Shown here one piece after another: positions 1 to 56,713 of a stretch of 64,000 nucleotides of DNA. The stretch is from Candidatus Aenigmatarchaeota archaeon (GTDB taxonomy: Archaea; Aenigmatarchaeota; Aenigmatarchaeia; CG10238-14; SCSR01): NCBI GenBank assembly GCA_018920185.1, contig JAHLMT010000001.1, positions 78,702-142,701 on the forward strand, given 5' to 3'. The position numbers and the translations under genes are program-made. Below the pieces are notes generated by a model. It did not search any database, had not been told where the DNA came from, and saw only the letters and a program-made list of their open reading frames with translations. How positions within the stretch are numbered: the first letter of the stretch is position 1; each line of letters opens with the position of its first letter.

Positions 1-48
1 TCGATCTACTAGATTTAGAATAAAACACTCCTAAAGTCTATAGAAGAA

Positions 49-180
49 TGGGCATGGTCGGATTTGAACCGACGACCCCCTGTTATCTTAGATATACGGA
101 GCAATGCCATATAAGACAGGTGCTCCAACCAGGCTATTAGCCACGATCTCCCTTTGTAGTATCGTGAAAGCTACATGCCC
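49..180 (-). tRNA. tRNA with two introns (about 132 nt precursor, 75 nt mature); candidate tRNA-Ile(UAU)
   Basis: On the minus strand the 5' end GGGCATG-TA-GCTT pairs with the 3' end CATGCCC plus discriminator A. The T-arm is GTCGG-TTCAAAT-CCGAC and the variable loop is GGGTC. The D-arm GCTT/GAGC with loop AGCCTGGTTG only forms after removing about 32 nt between positions 13 and 14. The anticodon stem CCTGT/ACAGG is interrupted by 32 nt, read as a 7-nt loop plus a 25-nt intron. Canonical 37/38 splicing gives the loop CTTATAA, anticodon UAU. Confidence 0.6.
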
Positions 181-217
181 TGTATTTATATCATTATCCA
201 CCGACTAATATTTATTA

Positions 218-1581: not shown

Positions 1582-2613
1582 TTACCTTATCCAGACTACT
1601 AAATCAGCTCTTTCAACTGCACAAATGCAACAATGACTCATCGACGGACCACTTTCACAACTAGCGAACCATGTTGCAAACCCACAGGAATCTCCTCTAT
1701 CTCCATTAGACCAACCATTAACTGCACAAGAGCAACCTGTACTTTGAGAATATATGGGACTACCCCATGAACTTGTGTAAGCTGCATCTGAAAGTAATTT
1801 TATATCGGCATTAATATTGTTTTCAAAAGCACGTTTTTGAAAAAACTCTTTTCCTTCACTTCCGCATCCATTTGATGACCAATCATTCGGGTTGCTTATT
1901 TTATTAAAAATAACTGCAGTAACGGGATTATTCATATCATATCTGTTTTGTTGCCTCCAGTAAGCACGTGTAATTTTTTCACCATTATTCAAAATAGTCT
2001 TTATATTGGAATCTGATAACTTAACTGAAGTAGGTGAATTAGGATTAGTTACACTTCCCTTTGCTCCTACGTCCCAACAGTTATTAGCTTCTGACGCTTT
2101 ACATACAGCGGCTAATGTCCATCCCCCATCATTAGTAGACATATCACAATAGACTTGGACATCAACGCCGTCCAGTTTTAAGGTATAAACACCATCACCC
2201 ACAGAACCACCGTTATTCAGAATTTCCAAACAACTTTTACCAGTTCCAGGACCAGTAATAGTCAATATAGCTGTACTGCACATGCTTGATGTGCACAGGC
2301 GTAGAGTGTGAGTCCCAACGGATAACATTGAAGGTATTAATGGTATTATTTCAGCAACCTGTCCAGGTTGTATGGGTTGCATTTTTAAATTTACAGACTG
2401 CCCGTCTAAAGTTGCTGTAATTTTAGTTATTTCTGATGTCCCATCATTTCTTATAGTTACCTTACTTCCCGTTGAACCTATTACAGAAAATGGGGTAGCT
2501 AATCTTGAAGTAAATGTCCCAGAAATATAAAGGTAAGCTGTTCCTGCTAGAGCAATTGTAATCATCAGCATTAAAATAACACCAATAACAGTGGAAATTC
2601 CTTTGTTTTCCAT
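1582..2613 (-). CDS. type IV pilin-like protein (class III signal peptide) with C-terminal fibrinogen-related (FReD-like) Cys-rich domain
   Basis: The N-terminus MENKGISTVIGVILMLMITIALAGTAYLY is an archaeal prepilin (DUF361-type) signal. The C-terminal half contains GVYTLKLDGVDVQVYCDMSTNDGGWTL, matching the FReD hallmark (VYCDM.TDGGGWTV), followed by a Cys-rich tail. Confidence 0.7.
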   Translation of the reverse strand: MENKGISTVIGVILMLMITIALAGTAYLYISGTFTSRLATPFSVIGSTGSKVTIRNDGTSEITKITATLDGQSVNLKMQPIQPGQVAEIIPLIPSMLSVGTHTLRLCTSSMCSTAILTITGPGTGKSCLEILNNGGSVGDGVYTLKLDGVDVQVYCDMSTNDGGWTLAAVCKASEANNCWDVGAKGSVTNPNSPTSVKLSDSNIKTILNNGEKITRAYWRQQNRYDMNNPVTAVIFNKISNPNDWSSNGCGSEGKEFFQKRAFENNINADIKLLSDAAYTSSWGSPIYSQSTGCSCAVNGWSNGDRGDSCGFATWFASCESGPSMSHCCICAVERADLVVWIR

Positions 2614-6477: not shown

Positions 6478-8846
6478 ATCCAAGATTCTCTTTGTTCCAA
6501 AAATTAATCAAAGGCTATAGAATAGCAAAAGTAAGCGAATACATTGGAAAATCTGAGCCAGTCCTAGGACAACCAAAATACATTCCAAGTTTACCGAAGC
6601 CAACAACTGTAGGAGAAGTAGCTAGAGCTTTTAATCTGCCTACAACAATGGTAGAAAAACTCTATAATGAAATAAAACAAATCCAAAAACTATCAGAAGA
6701 GCCTGTCGGTGACCCCACAAGTCTAAAAAATAAAATTGAAGATGTGGAGAAAATTGCAGCAAATACAGGAGTGTACATCCTCCCGGAGGTATACAATGCT
6801 ATCAAGCAAGCCAAAGAAAAAGTTCGTGAACTAGAGTTAAACACAGTATCTGATATAGATCCTTTACTTGAAGCCAGAAAGCAGATAGAAGAACTAGAAA
6901 AAGAAAAGAGAATTTTAGAAGCTGCCAAAGCTGCAGCGATGGAAAAATATTATAATCGTGAAATTGACGAAGCTTCTCTTAAAAATATAATTGATAACTA
7001 TGAACAGAGACTTGTTGAAAATGATGTAAGAATTAAAAGCTGGAAAGAAGAGCTAGAAAAATTAGAAAAAGAACCCCAGCTTGCAAGAAAAACTCCAGAA
7101 GAAAAGAAAGAAAGATTTCTTGCAGTCATGCAAGCAGTCAAATCGGGTGAAACAAAAGCTTTTGCACAAATCTCAAAAATACCTCTACCTACATTGCAAC
7201 CTTTAGTAAACGTTCAAATTCCACAACCTTCGACTCCACCACAACTCTTTAAACCAATAAAAACTGTAGAAAGAATAGAAGGGCTTGAAATACCACGCGC
7301 TCCTAAAAAGGCAATAAAAATAAGTTCAATTGAAACCGAAGAAGAAACACCTCATATTTCTCTTACCTATCCTTTAATTCCTAGATTTCCATCAAAAGGC
7401 GACTATGTTTTTGCTTATGCAAAAATTTTCTGGGACGATACTAACAACAGATATGTTTACTATCTTGTTGAGCCAAAACTAACAGAAAAACTGAAAGAAA
7501 TTTATCAAAAAGTTAAGGAAATGCTAGAACAAAGACTTGACATAGATTTTTCTAAGCTGAAGAAAATCGAAGCAAAAGAATTTCTCGATAAACAAATCGA
7601 CGATATTTTGAACTACTTTAACTTCATTCTAACCAAAAAAGAAAAGGAAATTTTGAGATATTACATGTTCAGAGATTTCACAGGCTTAGAGATGATAGAA
7701 CCCTTAATTCAAGATCCCAATATCGAAGATATCAGTTGTGATGGTGTTGGAATCCCAATATTCGTTTTCCACAGAAATCCCGATATAGGGTCAATAGCAA
7801 CAAATATAAAATTCATTAACTCAGACCAACTAGATTCGTTTATAATAAAATTAGCACAAATGTGTGGAAAATCTATATCTATATCAGAACCTTTACTTGA
7901 CGGAACATTACCAGACGGTAGTAGAGTACAAGCAACTCTAGGAACCGATATTGCAAGAAGAGGTTCGAATTTTACAATCAGAAAATTTACAGAAATTCCT
8001 TTAACACCCGTACATTTCATGAACTATGGAACAGTGGACTCAAGCATTCTAGCATACTTATGGTTTGTTATCGACTACGGTAGAAGTGTTCTGATTTCTG
8101 GTGGTACGGCTTCAGGCAAGACTTCTATGTTAAATGTTCTTTCTCTCTTTATCAGACCTGAGAAAAAGATAGTATCAATTGAAGATACTGCCGAGTTAAG
8201 ATTACCACATTATCACTGGGTACCTGTAGTTGCAAGAACTGCTATTGGAACGGAAGGTAAAGGTGAAGTTGATATGTTTGAACTGTTAAGAGAAAGTTTA
8301 CGACAGAGACCCGATTATATTGTAGTAGGTGAAGTTAGGGGGAAAGAAGCATATATCTTATTTCAACAAATGAGTACAGGTCACCCTTCTCTCGCAACCA
8401 TTCACTCTGAAAATATGGCACGACTAGTCAACAGACTAACAACACCACCTATTTCATTACCTGCAGGATTGATCACAGCTTTAGATATAGTGATTTTTCT
8501 TGCACGTATGAAATATAAAAACAAATTTGTCAGAAAAGTCGTTGAAATTGACGAGATTGTTGATTTTGATCTAAACACAAACACACCAATCATCAATCAA
8601 ATCTTTAAATGGGATCCCAAAACTGATAAGTTTGAAATAACAGGTAAAAGCATCTCACTCAAGAAAGTATCGGATTTTACAGGAATTTCTGAAAAAGATA
8701 TCAAAGATGAAATCGAACGAAGAATTGTTGTACTAGAGTGGATGAAGGAGAATAACATAACAGATTATCGAGATGTTCATAGAATATTTTCTATTTATTA
8801 TAACGATCCAGCAAGCTTATTATCATATATACAAGGTGCTGGGTAG
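6474..8846 (+). CDS. FlaI/GspE/VirB11-family secretion ATPase (type IV pilus assembly ATPase) with about 290 aa N-terminal coiled-coil extension
   Basis: Walker A LISGGTASGKTSMLNVL, the Asp/His boxes, YIVVGEVRGKEAYILFQQMSTGHPSLATIHS, and a FlaI-like N-domain (YPLIP.FPSKGDYVFAYAKIF). The first roughly 290 aa are coiled-coil-rich with no FlaI counterpart. Confidence 0.85.
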   Translation: MNPRFSLFQKLIKGYRIAKVSEYIGKSEPVLGQPKYIPSLPKPTTVGEVARAFNLPTTMVEKLYNEIKQIQKLSEEPVGDPTSLKNKIEDVEKIAANTGVYILPEVYNAIKQAKEKVRELELNTVSDIDPLLEARKQIEELEKEKRILEAAKAAAMEKYYNREIDEASLKNIIDNYEQRLVENDVRIKSWKEELEKLEKEPQLARKTPEEKKERFLAVMQAVKSGETKAFAQISKIPLPTLQPLVNVQIPQPSTPPQLFKPIKTVERIEGLEIPRAPKKAIKISSIETEEETPHISLTYPLIPRFPSKGDYVFAYAKIFWDDTNNRYVYYLVEPKLTEKLKEIYQKVKEMLEQRLDIDFSKLKKIEAKEFLDKQIDDILNYFNFILTKKEKEILRYYMFRDFTGLEMIEPLIQDPNIEDISCDGVGIPIFVFHRNPDIGSIATNIKFINSDQLDSFIIKLAQMCGKSISISEPLLDGTLPDGSRVQATLGTDIARRGSNFTIRKFTEIPLTPVHFMNYGTVDSSILAYLWFVIDYGRSVLISGGTASGKTSMLNVLSLFIRPEKKIVSIEDTAELRLPHYHWVPVVARTAIGTEGKGEVDMFELLRESLRQRPDYIVVGEVRGKEAYILFQQMSTGHPSLATIHSENMARLVNRLTTPPISLPAGLITALDIVIFLARMKYKNKFVRKVVEIDEIVDFDLNTNTPIINQIFKWDPKTDKFEITGKSISLKKVSDFTGISEKDIKDEIERRIVVLEWMKENNITDYRDVHRIFSIYYNDPASLLSYIQGAG

Positions 8847-9715
8847 TGGGATTTTACACAAGAGTAGCATTCACACTTTTTGGCAGATTTAGTGATAATT
8901 TAATAGTTTTCTTTCCAGATTTGTCAGATAATTTGAAAAAAGCTGGAATGAAAATTTCTAGTAAAGAGTACATAAGTACAGGAATATTAACATCTTTTTT
9001 ATTTTTCCTCATTGAAATACCATTGCTATCTTTTATTTTTGGTATGTTTTTCCGAAGTGTGATATTAAGTGTAATAACAGCAATTACATTATCTGCACTG
9101 CTTACAATAATAATTTTTTATTTGTTTACAAAATATCCCAACACAGTTGTGGCAGATAGAGCAAAAAAGATAGACACTTATCTACCGTTTGCATCTTTAT
9201 TTCTCTCAACAATTGCTGGTACAAAATTACCTCTAGATCAAGTTTTTAAATTTTTTGTAAAAAATAGCAAATACGGAGAAGTAACCAATCAATTTCAAAT
9301 GATAACTAACGATGTGGAAGCTTTTGGGTTGGACGTTCATACAGCATTGCAAAGAGCTATAGATAGAACACCATCAAAAAAATTGAGAGAAATGTTATAC
9401 GGATTGTTATCTACATCACTCTCAGGCGGAGATGTTGCTATTTATTTGAGAGAAAAAGCTGCAAATCAAATGGAAGATTATAGGCTATCAATAACTCAAT
9501 TCTCTAAAAAATTGGTTTTATTTATCGAGATTTATCTCACAGCAATAGTTTTAGGTGCTATATTTTTTGTAATCCTTACATCGATATTTTCTGGAATTTC
9601 TGGAGTTTCCAGCAACATAATTTTATTACAGTCTCTGATTATTTTTATTTTCCTACCACTGCTGTCACTTCTTTTCATTCTTTTAGTTAAAATATCTTCG
9701 CCAATAGGAGAATGA
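8846..9715 (+). CDS. type II secretion system F-domain membrane protein (TadB/FlaJ N-half-like)
   Basis: A polytopic membrane protein with the T2SSF motif region LREMLYGLLSTSLSGGDVAIYLREKAANQMEDYR. It has a GTG start overlapping the ATPase stop. A downstream ATG (MKISSK) is an alternative start. Confidence 0.7.
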   Translation: MGFYTRVAFTLFGRFSDNLIVFFPDLSDNLKKAGMKISSKEYISTGILTSFLFFLIEIPLLSFIFGMFFRSVILSVITAITLSALLTIIIFYLFTKYPNTVVADRAKKIDTYLPFASLFLSTIAGTKLPLDQVFKFFVKNSKYGEVTNQFQMITNDVEAFGLDVHTALQRAIDRTPSKKLREMLYGLLSTSLSGGDVAIYLREKAANQMEDYRLSITQFSKKLVLFIEIYLTAIVLGAIFFVILTSIFSGISGVSSNIILLQSLIIFIFLPLLSLLFILLVKISSPIGE

Positions 9716-31420: not shown

Positions 31421-31424
31421 TTAG

Positions 31425-31501
31425 TGCCCTCGATGGGATTCGAACCCACGACCTTCTCCTTAGGACGGAGCTGCTCTGATTCCAGGCTGAGCTACGAGGG
31501 C
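31425..31501 (-). tRNA. tRNA-Arg (anticodon CCU)
   Basis: The minus strand reads GCCCTCG-TA-GCTC-AGCCTGGAATCA-GAGC-A-GCTCC-GTCCTAA-GGAGA-AGGTC-GTGGG-TTCGAAT-CCCAT-CGAGGGC-A, a clean cloverleaf with no intron. Confidence 0.85.
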
Positions 31502-38228: not shown

Positions 38229-41222
38229 ATGATAAAAGAAGTTAAAGGTAATTACAATCCAAAGGAGCTCGAGCAAAGAATTATAGAATGGTGGGAATCG
38301 AATAAAATTCCAAATAAATTAACAAAATTGGATCCCAAGAAAAAGAAATTCTATCTTCTAGACGGGCCACCATATGTTAACAACATTCCTCATGTAGGTC
38401 ATATTAAAACAACTACATGCAAAGATATATGGTCTAAGTTCAAACTTATGCAAGGTTTCAGCTCATGGTTTCAACCAGGATTCGATACACATGGTTTACC
38501 AATAGAAAATATGGTAGAAAAAACACTAGGAATAACATCAAAGAAAGATATCGAAAAAATGGGTATTGATAAATTTATTGAGGCATGTAAAAAGTTTGCT
38601 ACTGGCAATGAAAAAATCTGGTTAGAGCTTTATAAAAAGTTGGGTGCATGGAGAGGATATGTAGAACCTTACATTACTTACCAGAATTATTACATTGAAT
38701 CAGGTTGGTGGACTGTTAAAAAACTTGCAGAAAAGGGGATGTTAGTCGAAGGAGAGAAGTCAACTTTCTGGTGCTCACATTGTCAAACAGCTTTGGCAGG
38801 TTATGAAGTTTCCGATAGTTACGCAGATGTAAAGGATCCTTACATATATGTGAAATTTCCAGTAAAAGGTAGAAAGAATGAGTATATAATTGCATTCACA
38901 ACTACACCATGGACCTTGATAAGTAATGTTGCTCTGGCCGTGCATCCTGAAGAATATTATGTAAGAGTGAAAGTTGGAAATGAAGTCTATATATTAGCTG
39001 AAAAAAGAGTGGAGCCTGTACTAAAAGATTTACTTAAAATCAAGTACGAAATCCTAGAAAAGTTTTTAGGAAAGGAGCTAGATGGTTTACAATATTTACC
39101 AATTTTAAAAGTACCTACTCAGGAAAAATTAACCAAAACCAATGCTCACAGAGTGATACTATCAATTCCTGTATTAAAATCTAAATCATACAAACATGGT
39201 TTATTAGAAAACATTAAAGAACTTAAAAAAGGGGAATTCTTCGATTTTGTTACAGTAGAGGAAGGTAGTGGAGTAGTACACACAGCTCCTGGCCACGGTC
39301 CCGAGGATCACTATATCGGAGAACATTACAAACTACCTATGGTTTCACCTATTGATGATGAAGGTAAATTTACAGAGGAGGCTGGTGAATTTAAAGGAAT
39401 ATTTGTTAAAGATGCTGATAAGCTTATAATAGAACGACTTCAGAAAAATAATTTACTTTTGCATTTCGGCTGGATAACACACTCCTACCCTTTATGCTGG
39501 AGATGTAAAACACCTCTGATTTACAGATTAAGTAAACAATGGTTCTTTACCATAGACTTGATTAAAGAACAGATGATAAAAGAAAACAAGAAAGTTAACT
39601 GGTTACCAAGTTTTGGTAAAGAGAGATTTCATAACTGGTTAGACGAGGCTGTTGATTGGTGCGTATCAAGACAAAGATATTGGGGAATTCCTTTACCAAT
39701 ATGGATCTGCAATAATTGTAGCAAAAAAGAAATAATTGGAAGTGTGGAAGAGTTGAAAACAAAATCGGCAACAAAATTACCGAAAGAAATAGATTTGCAC
39801 AAACATGTTGTTGATAAAATAGAGTTAATATGTGATAACTGTCACTCAAGAATGACCAGAGTACCAGATGTATTAGATGTCTGGTTTGATTCGGGTATAT
39901 CCACATGGGCATCTCTCGGATATCCTTATCGAAATAAAGAGATTTTTGAAAAATTATGGCCGGCTGATATGGTTTGTGAATCACAAGATCAGATAAGAGG
40001 ATGGTTTTATAGTTTGATGTTTTGTGGCGTGGCAACTTTCGGTTCCGCTCCTTATAATGGAGTTTCTTTAATGGGTTGGGTTGTAGATGAAAAAGGAGAA
40101 AAGATGAGCAAGTCTTTGGGTAATGTTATCTGGGCTGAGGATGCGTTAGAGAAATTAGGTGCGGACATACTTAGACTTTATTATTGTTGGGAAGTTGCGC
40201 CTTGGGAGGTTCAAAACTTTAGCTTCAAAACAGCAGAAGAAATTAGAAAAGCTTTGAACATTTTATGGAATTCTTATTCATTTTTTACAACATATGTTAC
40301 TCAAGATTTCAAACCGACTTTTAGAAATTTAAAAATAGAAGACAAATGGATACAATCGAAGCTACATTCCTTGATTAAGGATGTAACAAACTATTTAGAA
40401 AATTTTGAATTTCATAATGCTGGAAGAAAAATTATAGATTTTGTAGTTAATGATCTAAGCAGAACATATATTAAGTTAATTCGCGACAGAGTTTGGGTAA
40501 GTGAAACGGGCGAAAACAAACTTGCTGCATTATCCATGTTATACCAATGCTTGTTAACTGTATCAAAATTACTTGCTCCAATAACACCATTTTTATCAGA
40601 AGAAATTTATCAAAATTTAGAAGGTAAAGAAAAATCTGTTTTCATGACACAATGGCCTAATGTAAATGAAAAATTGATTGATAAAGAACTCGAACAACAG
40701 ATGGAAATAGCAAAAGAAATAATTGAAGCAAGCTTAGCCGCGAGACAATTGGCTGGAATTAAATTAAGGTGGCCTGTATCAGAAATTCTTGTTCAAACTG
40801 ACAATGAAAATGTTATAAAAGTTTTAGACAAATTAGACAGTATTTTACTATTTATGTGTAATGCTAAATCAATAGGCGTTGATAAAAATCCCTCAGGTAA
40901 AGAATTTTCCGAAGTTCAATTCAAGTACGGAAAAGTTTATGTTAATAGAACTCTTGATAAAGAATTATTAGAAGAAGCTTTAATCAAAGAACTAATACGA
41001 GAAGTTCAGAATCTAAGAAAGCAAAATAAGTTCAATGTAAAAGAAAAGATTATACTATCTATAAAAACAGAAAAGGAGATAGAAAAGACAGTAGAAAAAT
41101 ACACAGATACTATAAAGAAAGAAGTAGGTGCAACGAAAATTGTGTTTGGTGAACAAGGCAATTATAAAGGAAAATTAAATTTTGAAGATAGGATAATCGA
41201 ACTAAGCTTTGATAGAGTTTGA
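38229..41222 (+). CDS. ileS: isoleucyl-tRNA synthetase
   Basis: HIGH-type PPYVNNIPHVGH, WCVSRQRYWGIPLPIW (Ile/Val-type), KMSKSLGN, and the Zn motifs CNNC...CDNC. The length is 997 aa. Confidence 0.78.
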   Translation: MIKEVKGNYNPKELEQRIIEWWESNKIPNKLTKLDPKKKKFYLLDGPPYVNNIPHVGHIKTTTCKDIWSKFKLMQGFSSWFQPGFDTHGLPIENMVEKTLGITSKKDIEKMGIDKFIEACKKFATGNEKIWLELYKKLGAWRGYVEPYITYQNYYIESGWWTVKKLAEKGMLVEGEKSTFWCSHCQTALAGYEVSDSYADVKDPYIYVKFPVKGRKNEYIIAFTTTPWTLISNVALAVHPEEYYVRVKVGNEVYILAEKRVEPVLKDLLKIKYEILEKFLGKELDGLQYLPILKVPTQEKLTKTNAHRVILSIPVLKSKSYKHGLLENIKELKKGEFFDFVTVEEGSGVVHTAPGHGPEDHYIGEHYKLPMVSPIDDEGKFTEEAGEFKGIFVKDADKLIIERLQKNNLLLHFGWITHSYPLCWRCKTPLIYRLSKQWFFTIDLIKEQMIKENKKVNWLPSFGKERFHNWLDEAVDWCVSRQRYWGIPLPIWICNNCSKKEIIGSVEELKTKSATKLPKEIDLHKHVVDKIELICDNCHSRMTRVPDVLDVWFDSGISTWASLGYPYRNKEIFEKLWPADMVCESQDQIRGWFYSLMFCGVATFGSAPYNGVSLMGWVVDEKGEKMSKSLGNVIWAEDALEKLGADILRLYYCWEVAPWEVQNFSFKTAEEIRKALNILWNSYSFFTTYVTQDFKPTFRNLKIEDKWIQSKLHSLIKDVTNYLENFEFHNAGRKIIDFVVNDLSRTYIKLIRDRVWVSETGENKLAALSMLYQCLLTVSKLLAPITPFLSEEIYQNLEGKEKSVFMTQWPNVNEKLIDKELEQQMEIAKEIIEASLAARQLAGIKLRWPVSEILVQTDNENVIKVLDKLDSILLFMCNAKSIGVDKNPSGKEFSEVQFKYGKVYVNRTLDKELLEEALIKELIREVQNLRKQNKFNVKEKIILSIKTEKEIEKTVEKYTDTIKKEVGATKIVFGEQGNYKGKLNFEDRIIELSFDRV

Positions 41223-41967
41223 TGTAATGAGATTTCTTATTTTTCAGCATGTACCACATGAGCATCTAGGAAGAATATCAACTTATTGTGAAAAAGAAAA
41301 TATTGATTTAGAAATAGTCGAACTTTGGAAATCACATAAAATCCCTAATGTAACAGATTTTGATGGACTAATAATTATGGGCGGACCAATGTCAGTATAC
41401 GATGAAGAAAGTTCTTATCCTACTAAGCTACATGAATTAAGTACAATAAGATTAGCTATCAGAAACAAAATTCCTATTCTAGGTTTCTGCTTAGGTAGTC
41501 AATTACTTGCTAATGCTTTAGGCGCGAGTGTATATCCAAATGTGATTAACGGCCAGAGGGTAAAAGAAATAGGATTCTTTCAAGTTGAATTAACAGAAGA
41601 AGGTCGAAAAGATCCATTATTCTCTGGTTTATCGTCACCATTAATAGTTCTCCAATGGCATGGAGATGCATTTGATATACCAAACAAAGCTATAAAACTT
41701 GCTACTGCTCCATTATGTCCAAATCAAGCTTTTAGATATGATACAGCTTACGGTTTGTTATTTCACTTGGAATTTACACAAGAAATGGTAAAAAACCAAT
41801 TAGAAATTGACAGAGTGTGGATACATAAAGACAATGAATTAGACGAAGATGAGATATTGAAGCAAGCATTAGAAAATGATACTTTAATGGAAAAACAATG
41901 TCAAAGACTGTTCTATAATTTTCTTAAATTAATTAATTCAAGGATTCGAGAAGATGAAATTATCTAA
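41209..41967 (+). CDS. class I glutamine amidotransferase-like protein
   Basis: Catalytic Cys in ILGFCLGSQLLA, His in LQWHGDAF. It overlaps the ileS end. Confidence 0.75.
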   Translation: MIEFDVMRFLIFQHVPHEHLGRISTYCEKENIDLEIVELWKSHKIPNVTDFDGLIIMGGPMSVYDEESSYPTKLHELSTIRLAIRNKIPILGFCLGSQLLANALGASVYPNVINGQRVKEIGFFQVELTEEGRKDPLFSGLSSPLIVLQWHGDAFDIPNKAIKLATAPLCPNQAFRYDTAYGLLFHLEFTQEMVKNQLEIDRVWIHKDNELDEDEILKQALENDTLMEKQCQRLFYNFLKLINSRIREDEII

Positions 41968-42355
41968 GAAATATTTAATTCTTCTCAGTTTAATTTCTTC
42001 TTTAGTTGGCTTAGCTTTAATCTACATAGCAACAATAAACTTAGAACCTAAACAGATAGCTATTAGTGAGATAAGCGCCGACATGGAAGGTAGGAAAATT
42101 AGTACTACAGGTTATTTGGTAAATAAAAAGGAACATAAAGATGGACATTTGTTTCTAACTGTTTCTGATGATAAAGCGGAAATACAAGTTGTATTGTTTT
42201 CAGATTTAATGAAAAGTTTAAGTCAAATTGGGATTACACCTGATAATTTTAAGTTAAATGTCAAAATTGCAGTAAAAGGAATTCTAGAGAATTATAAAGG
42301 TAGATTGGAAATCATTCCTAAAAGCTTGAATGATATAAAAATTCTCGGTGATTGA
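41954..42355 (+). CDS. membrane-anchored OB-fold-like protein, hypothetical
   Basis: An N-terminal TM/signal (LILLSLISSLVGLALIYIA) followed by an OB-like segment, TTGYLVNKKEHKDGHLFLTVSDDKAEIQVVLF. Confidence 0.5.
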   Translation: MKLSKKYLILLSLISSLVGLALIYIATINLEPKQIAISEISADMEGRKISTTGYLVNKKEHKDGHLFLTVSDDKAEIQVVLFSDLMKSLSQIGITPDNFKLNVKIAVKGILENYKGRLEIIPKSLNDIKILGD

Positions 42356-52472: not shown

Positions 52473-55127
52473 TTATTCTAAATAAATTGCAGGTTTACCA
52501 TATTTAGCTCTTGAGGCTTTACCTTCAGGATCGTATTTCTCTTTATCCGAAGCTTTGTATAGCTCTATTTTTTTAAAAGAAAATGTTTTCTGCAAATATT
52601 GTAAAGATTCCTTGAAGTAATTCAATTCCTTATCTGTCACAAAATATAAATAAGCATTTTTCTTTTCTCCTGCTAACTTCAAAACTTGATTTAGGTCTTC
52701 TTGAGTTTTTTTGAAAATATTTTCTAGTTCTAAAACATCTCTATTAATTTTCTTCTCATCAAATGTAGGCCAGGGGCCTAAGGAAATGAAATTTTTGTTG
52801 CCCAATCTCGACCACAACTCTTCAGCAATATGTGGCGTGAAGGGCGTAACCAACTTTAATGCTGTGGATATACCTTCTTTCAGAATAGTTCTATTACAAT
52901 TTCTAATACCACCACATCTTTCAATGTAATGTTCCAATTCATTTAAAAGTTGAAATACACTATATTGGATTCCTGATCTGAACTTCATTAATTCGTAATT
53001 TTCTGTGGCTTCTTTGATACAATTTTGTAATATAGTTTCCATATATTTGTCTAAATTATTTGGCGAATTTCTTTTAGCTTTCCTCCAGTTTTTAACAAGT
53101 AGCTCTAAAAATTCAAGTCGAGAAGAAAATGCTTTTAAGGAATCTTCTCTCCAATCTGCATCGTCCATATTTTCATTTGCTGCAGCAATATTAATTCTTA
53201 CTAAATCAGCACCATATTTCTGAATCAAATCTTTCAATGGTATAATATTACCACGAGATTTAGCCATTTTTTCGCCCCCAACTTTTACGAAGCCATTAAC
53301 ACCATAAGCTTTAGGCCAATACTTCTGATCATCCCAGATTGCGACATGATGAAAAAGTGCGTAAGTTAGATGGTTTTGGATTAAATCTTTACCAGAATTC
53401 CTTAAATCAAATGGATAGAAATATTCAAATTCCTCTCTCATTTCTTTTATTAGATCCTCATTTAATTTCGATTTTTTACTAATTTCTTTTGAATTACCTT
53501 TGCCCAAGAACACATAGTCAAAAATCTCATCAGTTAATTTTTCAGCAGGTATTTCATTTTCATTGATAACTCTTGCTATTGTATAATATGCCATATAAAT
53601 TACAGAATCGCTTAAAGTTTCGACTATCCATTCTTTATCCCACGGTAACTTTGTACCCAATCCACTTTTTCTTGCACACGCTTTATCATCCAACCAATCA
53701 ACAGTGTTGAGGAATTGTATCCTAGCTTCTTCAGGATAGAATTTCATTTGTTGGATGCACTGCTTTACCTTTTCTTTCCATCCTTTGTCAGAAAATTTCA
53801 AGAACCACTGATTTTCTAAAATTTTAACATGACATCTGTGTGTGCAGCGGCATATAACAGGATTACTAGCTTCCCACATCTTGTCTGCAATATTTTGATT
53901 AACGAAATCTTCTATCAATGCATTCTTAACTTCTGAAACTTTTTTACCAGCATACTTTCCACAAATTTCTCTAAGAATTCCTGTATGGTACTCTTTTTTG
54001 TAAACTATAGATGTTGCCTCCTCTAATTTCTCAGTTTCTTTCGTAGATTTTATTCCCATTTTTTCAGAAACCTCAACCGCAGGACATTCACCAAAACCTT
54101 CGACTTTTATTACAGAAATCGGCTGAATTTTCTCACCTAGTTCTTTCAAAGCCACATAGTCATAAGGCGCATGTGCAGGTACTGACATTACTATTCCTGT
54201 AGCTGTTGCCGGATCTACAAACTCACCTGGAAGTATAGGAACAGATTTATTAGTAACAAGATTTGTAACTGATTTGTTGATTAATTCTTTGCTAGAAATT
54301 CCGCCTAAAATCTCAACGTCTCTTAACTGATCTTTAAATTTTTCTATAGTTTCTTGAGTAACAATCCAGACTTCATTTTTAATTTTTACTTTTACATGGT
54401 TTGCTTTAGGATTAATCCAGAGATTTGTTACACCATAAATTGTTTCTGGTCTTAATGTCGCACATGGTAAGATTTCACCTGAATCGAGTTTGAACTTCAA
54501 TAAAACAAATTCAATCGGGCTTTCTCCTTCACCTTTCAATCTGTCGTGATCGCCTGTAGGCGATTGATCATGTGGACACCAAATTACAGGATGGGTTCCT
54601 TGAGTGACATAGCCTTTCTTTCTTAATGTATTGTACTGCCATTCAATGAAACGATTATAAGTTGGTGTGATAGCAGTAACAAAAGTCCTTCTCCAATCGA
54701 TAGAATAGCCGATAGATTTAAAATCTTCGATAAAACCTTTCATCCAAAATCTTGCAACTGTCTCAGCACCACCACTAACGAATTCTTTCAAATCTTTATC
54801 AGTAGCCCCATATAACTTAAACGTTTCGATCTGTGTCTTGTCACCTTGCTTTAATCTTTCTACAGTTCCCAGTATAGGTTCACCGGTTGCATGAAAACCT
54901 TGTGGAAATAAAACATTGAATCCCTGCATTCTTTTAAATCTTGCGTAAACATCACCGCGGGTAAAAGTAAAACCAGCACCTATATGTGGCCTGCCATTTA
55001 GGTAAGGATAAGGAATTGTGATAAAGAATTTTTTCTTTTTTGGATTTACATTAGCTTCGAAGATTTTTGCTTTAGCCCATTTGGTCTGCCATTTTCGTTC
55101 TATTTTTTTAAAATCCATAAAAAACAC
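52473..55127 (-). CDS. leuS: leucyl-tRNA synthetase (archaeal type)
   Basis: N-terminal MDFKKIERKWQTKW, HIGH-type PYPYLNGRPHIGAG, KMAKSRGN, and a CP1 editing domain. The true start is probably the MDFKK Met, about 55118. Confidence 0.9.
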   Translation of the reverse strand: MFFMDFKKIERKWQTKWAKAKIFEANVNPKKKKFFITIPYPYLNGRPHIGAGFTFTRGDVYARFKRMQGFNVLFPQGFHATGEPILGTVERLKQGDKTQIETFKLYGATDKDLKEFVSGGAETVARFWMKGFIEDFKSIGYSIDWRRTFVTAITPTYNRFIEWQYNTLRKKGYVTQGTHPVIWCPHDQSPTGDHDRLKGEGESPIEFVLLKFKLDSGEILPCATLRPETIYGVTNLWINPKANHVKVKIKNEVWIVTQETIEKFKDQLRDVEILGGISSKELINKSVTNLVTNKSVPILPGEFVDPATATGIVMSVPAHAPYDYVALKELGEKIQPISVIKVEGFGECPAVEVSEKMGIKSTKETEKLEEATSIVYKKEYHTGILREICGKYAGKKVSEVKNALIEDFVNQNIADKMWEASNPVICRCTHRCHVKILENQWFLKFSDKGWKEKVKQCIQQMKFYPEEARIQFLNTVDWLDDKACARKSGLGTKLPWDKEWIVETLSDSVIYMAYYTIARVINENEIPAEKLTDEIFDYVFLGKGNSKEISKKSKLNEDLIKEMREEFEYFYPFDLRNSGKDLIQNHLTYALFHHVAIWDDQKYWPKAYGVNGFVKVGGEKMAKSRGNIIPLKDLIQKYGADLVRINIAAANENMDDADWREDSLKAFSSRLEFLELLVKNWRKAKRNSPNNLDKYMETILQNCIKEATENYELMKFRSGIQYSVFQLLNELEHYIERCGGIRNCNRTILKEGISTALKLVTPFTPHIAEELWSRLGNKNFISLGPWPTFDEKKINRDVLELENIFKKTQEDLNQVLKLAGEKKNAYLYFVTDKELNYFKESLQYLQKTFSFKKIELYKASDKEKYDPEGKASRAKYGKPAIYLE

Positions 55128-56590: not shown

Positions 56591-56713
56591 GCCCCTATAG
56601 CTCAGTTTGGATAGAGCAACGCACATAAAGGTTGAACCTTCTATCTATCTGAAAAGAAGGATTGATAAAAGGATGAAAGGCGGAGGTCGTGGGTTCAAAT
56701 CCCACTGGGGGCA
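56591..56713 (+). tRNA. intron-containing tRNA (123 nt precursor), isotype unresolved
   Basis: An acceptor stem GCCCCTA/TGGGGGC with discriminator A, D-arm GCTC-AGTTTGGATA-GAGC, variable loop AGGTC, and T-arm GTGGG-TTCAAAT-CCCAC. About 49 extra nt lie in the anticodon region, including the hairpin CCTTCT...AGAAGG. The mature anticodon stem could not be reconstructed unambiguously. Confidence 0.6.

Follow-up and report, generated by a model that had tools for sequence, protein, structure and literature searches.

A 132-nt gene near the start of a 64,000-nt stretch of archaeal DNA (the window) is very probably a functional tRNA-Ile(UAU) gene of an Aenigmatarchaeota (DPANN) archaeon, interrupted by two introns, whose transcript would be processed as proposed below to yield a tRNA that decodes AUA. 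The original prediction for this locus had named “some DPANN” among the possible lineages, and the protein encoded next to the tRNA agrees: a truncated database entry with 100% identity to it is labelled “Candidatus Aenigmatarchaeota archaeon”, and the matches at 54-77% are labelled Candidatus Aenigmarchaeota. The window has 34% G+C, is ~94% coding and contains archaeal informational genes, among them those for the thermosome, an FttA-type factor, the proteasome, aIF5B, aIF2-gamma, S6e and many aminoacyl-tRNA synthetases.

Gene anatomy and spliced product

The gene reads from position 180 down to 49 of the window (Table 1), and string assembly of its parts, in the order exon, intron, exon, intron, exon (13 + 32 + 26 + 25 + 36 nt from 5' to 3'), restores all 132 nt exactly. 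The original prediction had placed an intron of about 32 nt at 13/14 and one of about 25 nt at 37/38, and both the exact reassembly and an enumeration of BHB motifs bear this out. Once the two are removed, ARAGORN scores the 75-mer at 121.2 as tRNA-Ile(tat) and draws a canonical cloverleaf in which all stems are paired (acceptor 7 bp, D 4 bp, anticodon 5 bp, T 5 bp; T loop TTCAAAT). The acceptor, T arm and variable loop are thus canonical, as had been claimed, and the same cloverleaf confirms that the D stem GCUU/GAGC is formed only after removal of the first intron. This tRNA carries G21 in place of the usual A21. With intron 1 alone removed, the intron mode of ARAGORN places the identical 25-nt intron in the anticodon loop; with intron 2 alone removed, ARAGORN makes no call. 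Neither intron contains a C/D-box guide motif by eye.

Table 1. Positions of the tRNA gene, its parts and flanking signals, and of two synthetase genes, in the window
Feature	Position	Strand	Basis or remarks
Complete pre-tRNA-Ile(UAU) gene, 132 nt, CCA not encoded	49..180	-	ARAGORN 121.2 on spliced product
Exon 1, GGGCATGTAGCTT, 13 nt, tRNA positions 1-13: acceptor 5' strand, U8 A9, D-stem 5' strand GCUU	168..180	-	
Intron 1, TCACGATACTACAAAGGGAGATCGTGGCTAAT, 32 nt, at 13/14, relaxed HBh'	136..167	-	BHB enumeration and MFE fold
Exon 2, AGCCTGGTTGGAGCACCTGTCTTATA, 26 nt, positions 14-37: D loop AGCCUGGUUG, D-stem 3' strand GAGC, A26	110..135	-	
Exon 2, remaining part: anticodon-stem 5' strand CCUGU, loop CUUAUA	within 110..135	-	
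Anticodon UAU	113-111	-	within exon 2
Intron 2, TGGCATTGCTCCGTATATCTAAGAT, 25 nt, canonical 37/38, strict hBHBh'	85..109	-	BHB enumeration and ARAGORN intron mode
Exon 3, AACAGG...CATGCCCA, 36 nt, positions 38-73: A38, ACAGG, variable loop GGGUC	49..84	-	
Exon 3, remaining part: T arm GUCGG-UUCAAAU-CCGAC, acceptor 3' strand, discriminator A73	within 49..84	-	
Probable archaeal TATA-like box TAAATATT, putative promoter	207..214	-	27 to 34 nt upstream of tRNA position 1
T-rich stretch TTCTTCTAT immediately 3' of the discriminator base, putative transcription stop	40..48	-	sequence only
Candidate isoleucyl-tRNA synthetase, 997 aa	38229..41222	+	Pfam tRNA-synt_1 (1e-118), Anticodon_1, DUF5915
LeuRS, separate ORF	52473-55127		

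A promoter at the TATA-like box would leave little or no 5' leader on the transcript. Relatives have a similar box, TTAAATAC or TTTAATAT, at an equal distance from the tRNA. The region that separates the tRNA from the divergent gene for a 302-aa protein is only 37 nt long (181-217). Also within it is a conserved box, GATATAAAT, which reads ATTTATATC on the plus strand at about 185-193; its spacing of about 26-33 nt from the ATG that follows at 218 suggests a leaderless mRNA. The tRNA's own box abuts the start codon at 218, and both boxes are conserved in relatives.

Splice registers and precursor folding

To define the splice registers, all position pairs able to form a 4-bp central helix were enumerated, with each cut placed after the second base of a 3-nt bulge. 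The central helix of intron 2 pairs CUUA (115-112; tRNA positions 32-35) with UAAG (90-87), between the bulges UA-U and AU-A, where the hyphen marks the cut. With the 5-bp anticodon stem as its outer helix and 2 bp (G-C, G-U) in the inner one, the motif is of the strict hBHBh' type (H=4, h=5, h'=2). This register puts the junction at 37/38 and gives the loop CUUAUAA with the anticodon UAU, just as the original prediction had it, and leaves no place for the UGA that had been named as a possible alternative. For intron 1, UAGC (U8-C11; 173-170) pairs with GCUA (141-138) as the central helix, the 5' bulge is UU-U, and CACGAU (166-161) pairs with AUCGUG (147-142) in an inner helix of 6 bp. The 3' site, AU-A, has no outer helix, which makes this motif (H=4, h=0, h'=6) a relaxed HBh' of the accepted kind. 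At both introns the junctions fall two nt into 3-nt bulges beside 4-bp helices. Because the central helix at 13/14 uses U8-C11, the D arm would be unable to form before intron 1 is removed.

Folded without constraints, the precursor reaches an MFE of -46.7 kcal/mol (z = -3.1; 1 of 200 shuffles was equally stable). In this fold the acceptor stem is present, and so are three elements of the intron-1 motif, namely its UAGC/GCUA helix, UUU bulge and inner helix. The intron-2 BHB is missing from the fold, which favours instead the pairing of GGAGCAC, on the 3' side of the D arm, with GUUGCUCC inside intron 2; the model with the intron-2 BHB is ~10 kcal/mol worse than the thermodynamic optimum at 37 C. 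Intron 2 (85-109, minus strand) includes UGCUCC, which is complementary to GGAGCA (G21-A26; 121-127, minus strand). Pairing between the D arm and intron 2 could be due to chance or, more speculatively, could order the two splicing events.

Since the 13/14 motif has no outer helix, its cleavage would require an endonuclease with broad specificity. Such enzymes are needed for relaxed motifs, and in DPANN they include the alpha4 type with an L3 loop (PMC5829648). DPANN endonucleases, which differ from those of the Crenarchaeota discussed below, are of the alpha4 type with L3 loop, the (alpha-beta)2 type or the epsilon2 type (PMC5829648). The window and the 10 kb upstream of it encode neither a splicing endonuclease nor an RtcB-type ligase.

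Detection by tRNA finders

Standard tools pass over this gene. ARAGORN without intron mode makes no call at 49..180 and reports only a tRNA-Arg(CCU) at 31424-31501, and in intron mode it still misses the raw gene because of the D-arm intron. Rfam at its gathering score finds nothing at 49..180 and reports the gene at 31424-31501 and an intron-containing tRNA at 56591-56713. In E-value mode, Rfam aligns 150..49 of the unspliced DNA with 25.6 bits, below the 29-bit gathering threshold of RF00005, and this alignment starts from a wrong 5' end inside intron 1 and has four mismatches in the acceptor stem. A low RF00005 score is what the D-arm intron leads one to expect of the unspliced DNA. The freedom to remove inserts does not by itself create tRNAs: when up to two BHB-compatible inserts were removed from 300 random 220-nt pieces of the window before running ARAGORN, not one tRNA was called in the 300 pieces or in any of their 616,082 variants. 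The gene is a concrete case of what default tRNA finders overlook, and genomes of this kind seem to have no AUA decoder unless searches that allow several introns are run.

The orthologous gene in relatives

Relatives were collected through the neighbouring 302-aa protein or through gene order, and the tRNA sequence was not a criterion. It is an HTH/PDDEXK protein encoded at 218-1126 on the plus strand, and five NCBI MAGs and one Logan assembly contain it with 100% identity; in all six the sequence of the tRNA gene is identical too. MAGs that contain the locus are GCA_038998935.1, GCA_038997185.1, GCA_039091315.1, GCA_038997065.1 and GCA_038998575.1. The nearest GTDB species representatives are Aenigmatarchaeota MAGs. 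Wherever upstream DNA is present and synteny holds, the more distant loci (L007-L010, L132-L136 and L138) have a tRNA with the loop CTTATA at the syntenic place. Its stems change and still pair: the anticodon stem is CCUGU/ACAGG, AUUGU/GCAAU, ACUGU/GCAGU or AUCGA/UCGAU, and the T stem is GUCGG, CCCGG, CGGAG, AUGGG, AAGGG or CACGG.

The 13/14 insert is found in none of these syntenic relatives, since GTAGCTT is joined straight to AGCCTGGTT. Three other loci, L137 (whose neighbour protein is 80% identical) and the metagenome loci L079 and L092, contain GTAGCTTAGCCTGGTTGGAGCAC uninterrupted, which is the exact predicted join of exon 1 and exon 2 with the unusual G21 included. Other introns occupy the D arm in the clade: L007, L009 and L010 have a mini-intron of 13-15 nt near 20/21, the intron of L008, L132-L135 and L138 lies at 23/24, is 21 nt long and shares a conserved helix, AACUCU/AGAGUU, and L136 has three introns, at 20/21, 23/24 and 37/38. 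Among genes whose neighbour proteins are 67-84% identical, the state of the D arm thus ranges over an intron at 13/14 (32 nt), at ~20/21 (13-15 nt), at 23/24 (21 nt), both of the last two, or none, while the 37/38 intron is retained in every one of these clade members. L010 and L138 show a further insert of 15-17 nt after position 43/44, which duplicates TCGATAA. The confinement of the 13/14 intron to this species leaves its helices without support from covariation. Transposition of the introns was considered and rejected, as neither has copies in the window or in ~139 loci beyond chance 10-14-mers.

We suggest, tentatively and with rather more doubt than conviction, that 13/14 may be an uncatalogued position for a tRNA intron and that the orthologous gene may record a very fast turnover of introns within a narrow Aenigmatarchaeota clade. 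If so, these genes would form a natural series in which to study the gain, loss and movement of BHB introns, and the host would have an endonuclease that accepts a U8-C11 motif which blocks folding of the D arm before splicing. D-arm intron positions that differ among close relatives are in any case material for the open question of the origin and mobility of archaeal tRNA introns.

UAU genes in a wider metagenome sample

A scan of metagenome data with the pattern AGCCTGGTT...RGCA NNNNN CTTATA returned at least 120 stretches, and about 97 real tRNA genes are found among the matches listed, counting the window itself and four added GTDB relatives. An intron of 13-85 nt at 37/38 is present in 66 genes among these matches, 58 of them with a perfect 4-bp central helix in register. 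Introns in the D loop or D stem occur in 10 of the genes listed and T-arm introns in several. The insert at 13/14 is seen in one of about 100 UAU genes among the matches listed, that of the window only. In 47 distinct spliced UAU tRNAs, 99.7% of cells are paired and 16 of 21 pairs have changed on both sides, figures that are inflated and partly circular, as the rule-based parser demanded paired stems at extraction. At least 15 UAU genes among the matches listed, whose domain of origin is not established, have no 37/38 intron, which weakens the idea that UAU tRNAs strictly require it in the way known for yeast Pus1. The encoded-UAU solution appears to be common in uncultured archaea, with at least about 100 genes, most of them with archaeal-type introns.

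Surroundings of the gene

The window and its flanks hold an unusually dense set of tRNA-related genes. Synthetase genes in the window include those for ProRS, HisRS, IleRS, AlaRS, LeuRS, PheRS alpha and beta and a TyrRS/TrpRS-type enzyme. Immediately beyond window position 1 (6520-9289 of locus L001) lie genes for a CCA-adding enzyme and an RNase Z-like metallo-beta-lactamase of 305 aa, no more than 3.5 kb from the tRNA gene, and the gene for ThrRS follows slightly beyond.

The window also contains a second disrupted tRNA (56591-56713, plus strand), to which Rfam gives 45.7 bits with a 57-nt insert in the anticodon arm. ARAGORN's own call for it, His (atg), is implausible. Splicing by hand removes a 14-nt intron at 30/31 of the hBH type (H = CAAC/GUUG, outer helix of 3 bp) and a 34-nt intron at 37/38 whose central helix has only three of four pairs, and leaves a probable tRNA-Arg(UCU) (ARAGORN 117.8). 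AGA is the dominant Arg codon, at 29 per 1000.

Further along, a 343-aa ORF (1582-2613, minus strand) has no Pfam match; its hydrophobic N-terminus, MENKGISTVIGVILMLMITIALAG, resembles that of archaeal pilins. Four assemblies of the same species have this ORF, and it is absent in L002 and L006, where the thermosome gene directly follows the 302-aa gene; this looks like a strain-level insertion or deletion. Between 4884 and 12492 (plus strand), small proteins with pilin-like N-termini stand beside a 790-aa T2SSE-type ATPase and two T2SSF membrane proteins, a cluster that probably encodes a type IV pilus-like or archaellum-like surface apparatus. Such surface apparatus is often seen in host-attached DPANN archaea.

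AUA decoding and the proposed pathway

AUA makes up 793 of the 1848 Ile codons (43%) in the ORFs of the window and, at 39.8 per 1000, is the fourth commonest codon there. This appreciable use makes a dedicated reader of AUA indispensable. The UAU anticodon is encoded in the genome, as part of the loop CUUAUAA that BHB-phased splicing yields and that the syntenic relatives keep. The window has no CAU tRNA: its only three canonical T arms belong to Ile(UAU), Arg(CCU) and the probable Arg(UCU). No match to the TiaS family is found among the 56 ORFs of the window or the called genes of the 10 kb upstream, and one 133-aa protein consisting of an OB fold only (41954-42355) is unlike TiaS in length and architecture. 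To judge from its domain architecture, the product of the ORF at 38229..41222 is a candidate IleRS, the enzyme expected to charge this tRNA. The presence of A73, C4-G69, U12-A23 and A37 is presumably compatible with Ile identity as in E. coli, with the assignment to Ile resting on the anticodon.

These elements can be arranged in a pathway. The gene would be transcribed into a precursor of ~132 nt, in which the archaeal splicing endonuclease would cut the two BHB motifs, the strict hBHBh' at 37/38 and the relaxed HBh' at 13/14. Ligation of the exons would be followed by addition of CCA, a step that is included because CCA is not encoded. IleRS would then charge the 75-nt tRNA with isoleucine, and the product, with or without a modification of U34, would read AUA, putatively in place of the TiaS/agmatidine route. 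The second disrupted tRNA of the window also needs a non-canonical intron removed, at 30/31, so the organism must be able to process such introns.

Could the gene be functional and yet not be the sole decoder of AUA? If TiaS and a tRNA-Ile2(CAU) were also encoded, the UAU tRNA would be redundant or transitional. The DNA inspected amounts to 64 kb and ~10 kb of flank, and some bacteria do possess tilS together with a TAT tRNA (PMC3575796), so the presence of UAU alone is no proof that TiaS is absent. However, neither TiaS nor a CAU tRNA is in the window, and the archaeal lineages reported to have tRNA-Ile(UAU), namely Nanoarchaeum, Korarchaeum and ARMAN-2, -4 and -5, are all without TiaS (PMC3239211; PMC6000648), which makes redundancy unlikely.

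More drastic readings deny the gene its function or its anticodon. A decaying pseudogene that has accumulated two insertions and is never spliced would account for the failure of the standard tools, for the relaxed motif at 13/14 and for an intron-2 BHB that is not the MFE structure. It is very improbable, though, for a gene in which every stem is perfect once the inserts are precisely removed and correctly phased bulges bound both of them; moreover, its syntenic position is conserved with a UAU tRNA kept by all relatives, its sequence is identical in six assemblies, and AUA is heavily used. The splice register itself might be different and yield another anticodon or D arm, for example through a join at 12/13 or through the alternative D arm GUGGCUAAUA... 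of the Rfam alignment. A cut one base earlier, at 12/13, does produce the same mature sequence, because a U flanks both sides, and the E-value mode of Rfam did align an alternative 5' end within intron 1. Yet the shifted register lacks the 4-bp central helix, the Rfam alternative has those four acceptor mismatches and scores below threshold, the relatives are contiguous as GTAGCTTAGCC, and no BHB register in the enumeration of the gene gives any other anticodon, so that there is next to no chance of a different product.

Comparison with known systems

How the genome-encoded UAU is distributed in archaea has been described before. One survey names Nanoarchaeum and Korarchaeum as the only carriers of tRNA-UAU among 167 archaeal genomes (PMC6000648). 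The original prediction had likewise cited these two as the lineages that have tRNA-Ile(UAU) and lack TiaS; this is correct as far as it goes, but they do not stand alone and the present gene is less singular than such a list implies, since ARMAN-2, -4 and -5 also have tRNA-Ile(UAU), with both TiaS and tRNA-Ile(CAU) absent (PMC3239211). Our literature search on TiaS in DPANN found nothing relevant beyond that study (Fujishima et al. 2011).

The ARMAN lineages (Micrarchaeota/Parvarchaeota) are the closest parallel, being DPANN archaea that likewise encode UAU in the genome for AUA (Fujishima et al. 2011, PMC3239211). The pre-tRNA-Ile(UAU) of ARMAN-2 has a strict hBHBh' intron at 37/38 that is 25 nt long, as here, and that is cleaved in vitro (PMC3239211), and non-canonical introns occur in other tRNAs of both organisms. 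The ARMAN-2 gene has a single intron, whereas the present one has a second at 13/14 and comes from the phylum Aenigmatarchaeota. For ARMAN, the absence of TiaS and the type of endonuclease are established, while our reading covers the genes of the window and of the 10 kb upstream. Nanoarchaeum equitans and Korarchaeum cryptofilum share the archaeal tRNA-Ile(UAU), there in TiaS-less genomes, and the Korarchaeum gene has an intron too; they are other lineages, and the available text mentions no D-arm intron for theirs (PMC6000648).

The UAU anticodon and a 37/38 intron are also shared with eukaryotic tRNA-Ile(UAU), whose intron is required by Pus1 to make the pseudouridine-A-pseudouridine anticodon (PMC4090602). 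The intron is tied to modification there, whereas at least 15 UAU genes among the metagenome matches listed do without it. In Mycoplasma mobile, the UAU anticodon carries no modification, and it is left to IleRS and the ribosome to discriminate against AUG (PMC3575796). The encoded UAU of the present archaeon would extend to another DPANN phylum the solution that uses it instead of agmatidine to read AUA.

Multi-intron tRNAs with non-canonical introns were reportedly described in Crenarchaeota by Marck & Grosjean in 2003 and by Sugahara in 2008. The tRNAs of Thermoproteales and other Crenarchaeota resemble ours in having short introns outside the anticodon loop, with relaxed HBh' or hBH motifs, and in combining a non-canonical and a canonical intron in one gene (reviewed in PMC4090602). 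That review lists the positions 3/4, 20/21, 22/23, 25/26, 29/30, 30/31, 45/46, 53/54, 56/57, 59/60 “etc.”; unlike these, 13/14 is not named, and the host here is a DPANN archaeon (PMC4090602). Phrase searches of the literature returned no report of an intron at 13/14 either.

None of these results overturns the current understanding. That tRNA-Ile(UAU) can occur without TiaS is already known from the published cases of Nanoarchaeum, Korarchaeum and ARMAN, and the modest novelty of the present gene lies in the 13/14 site and in the lability of D-arm introns among its close relatives.
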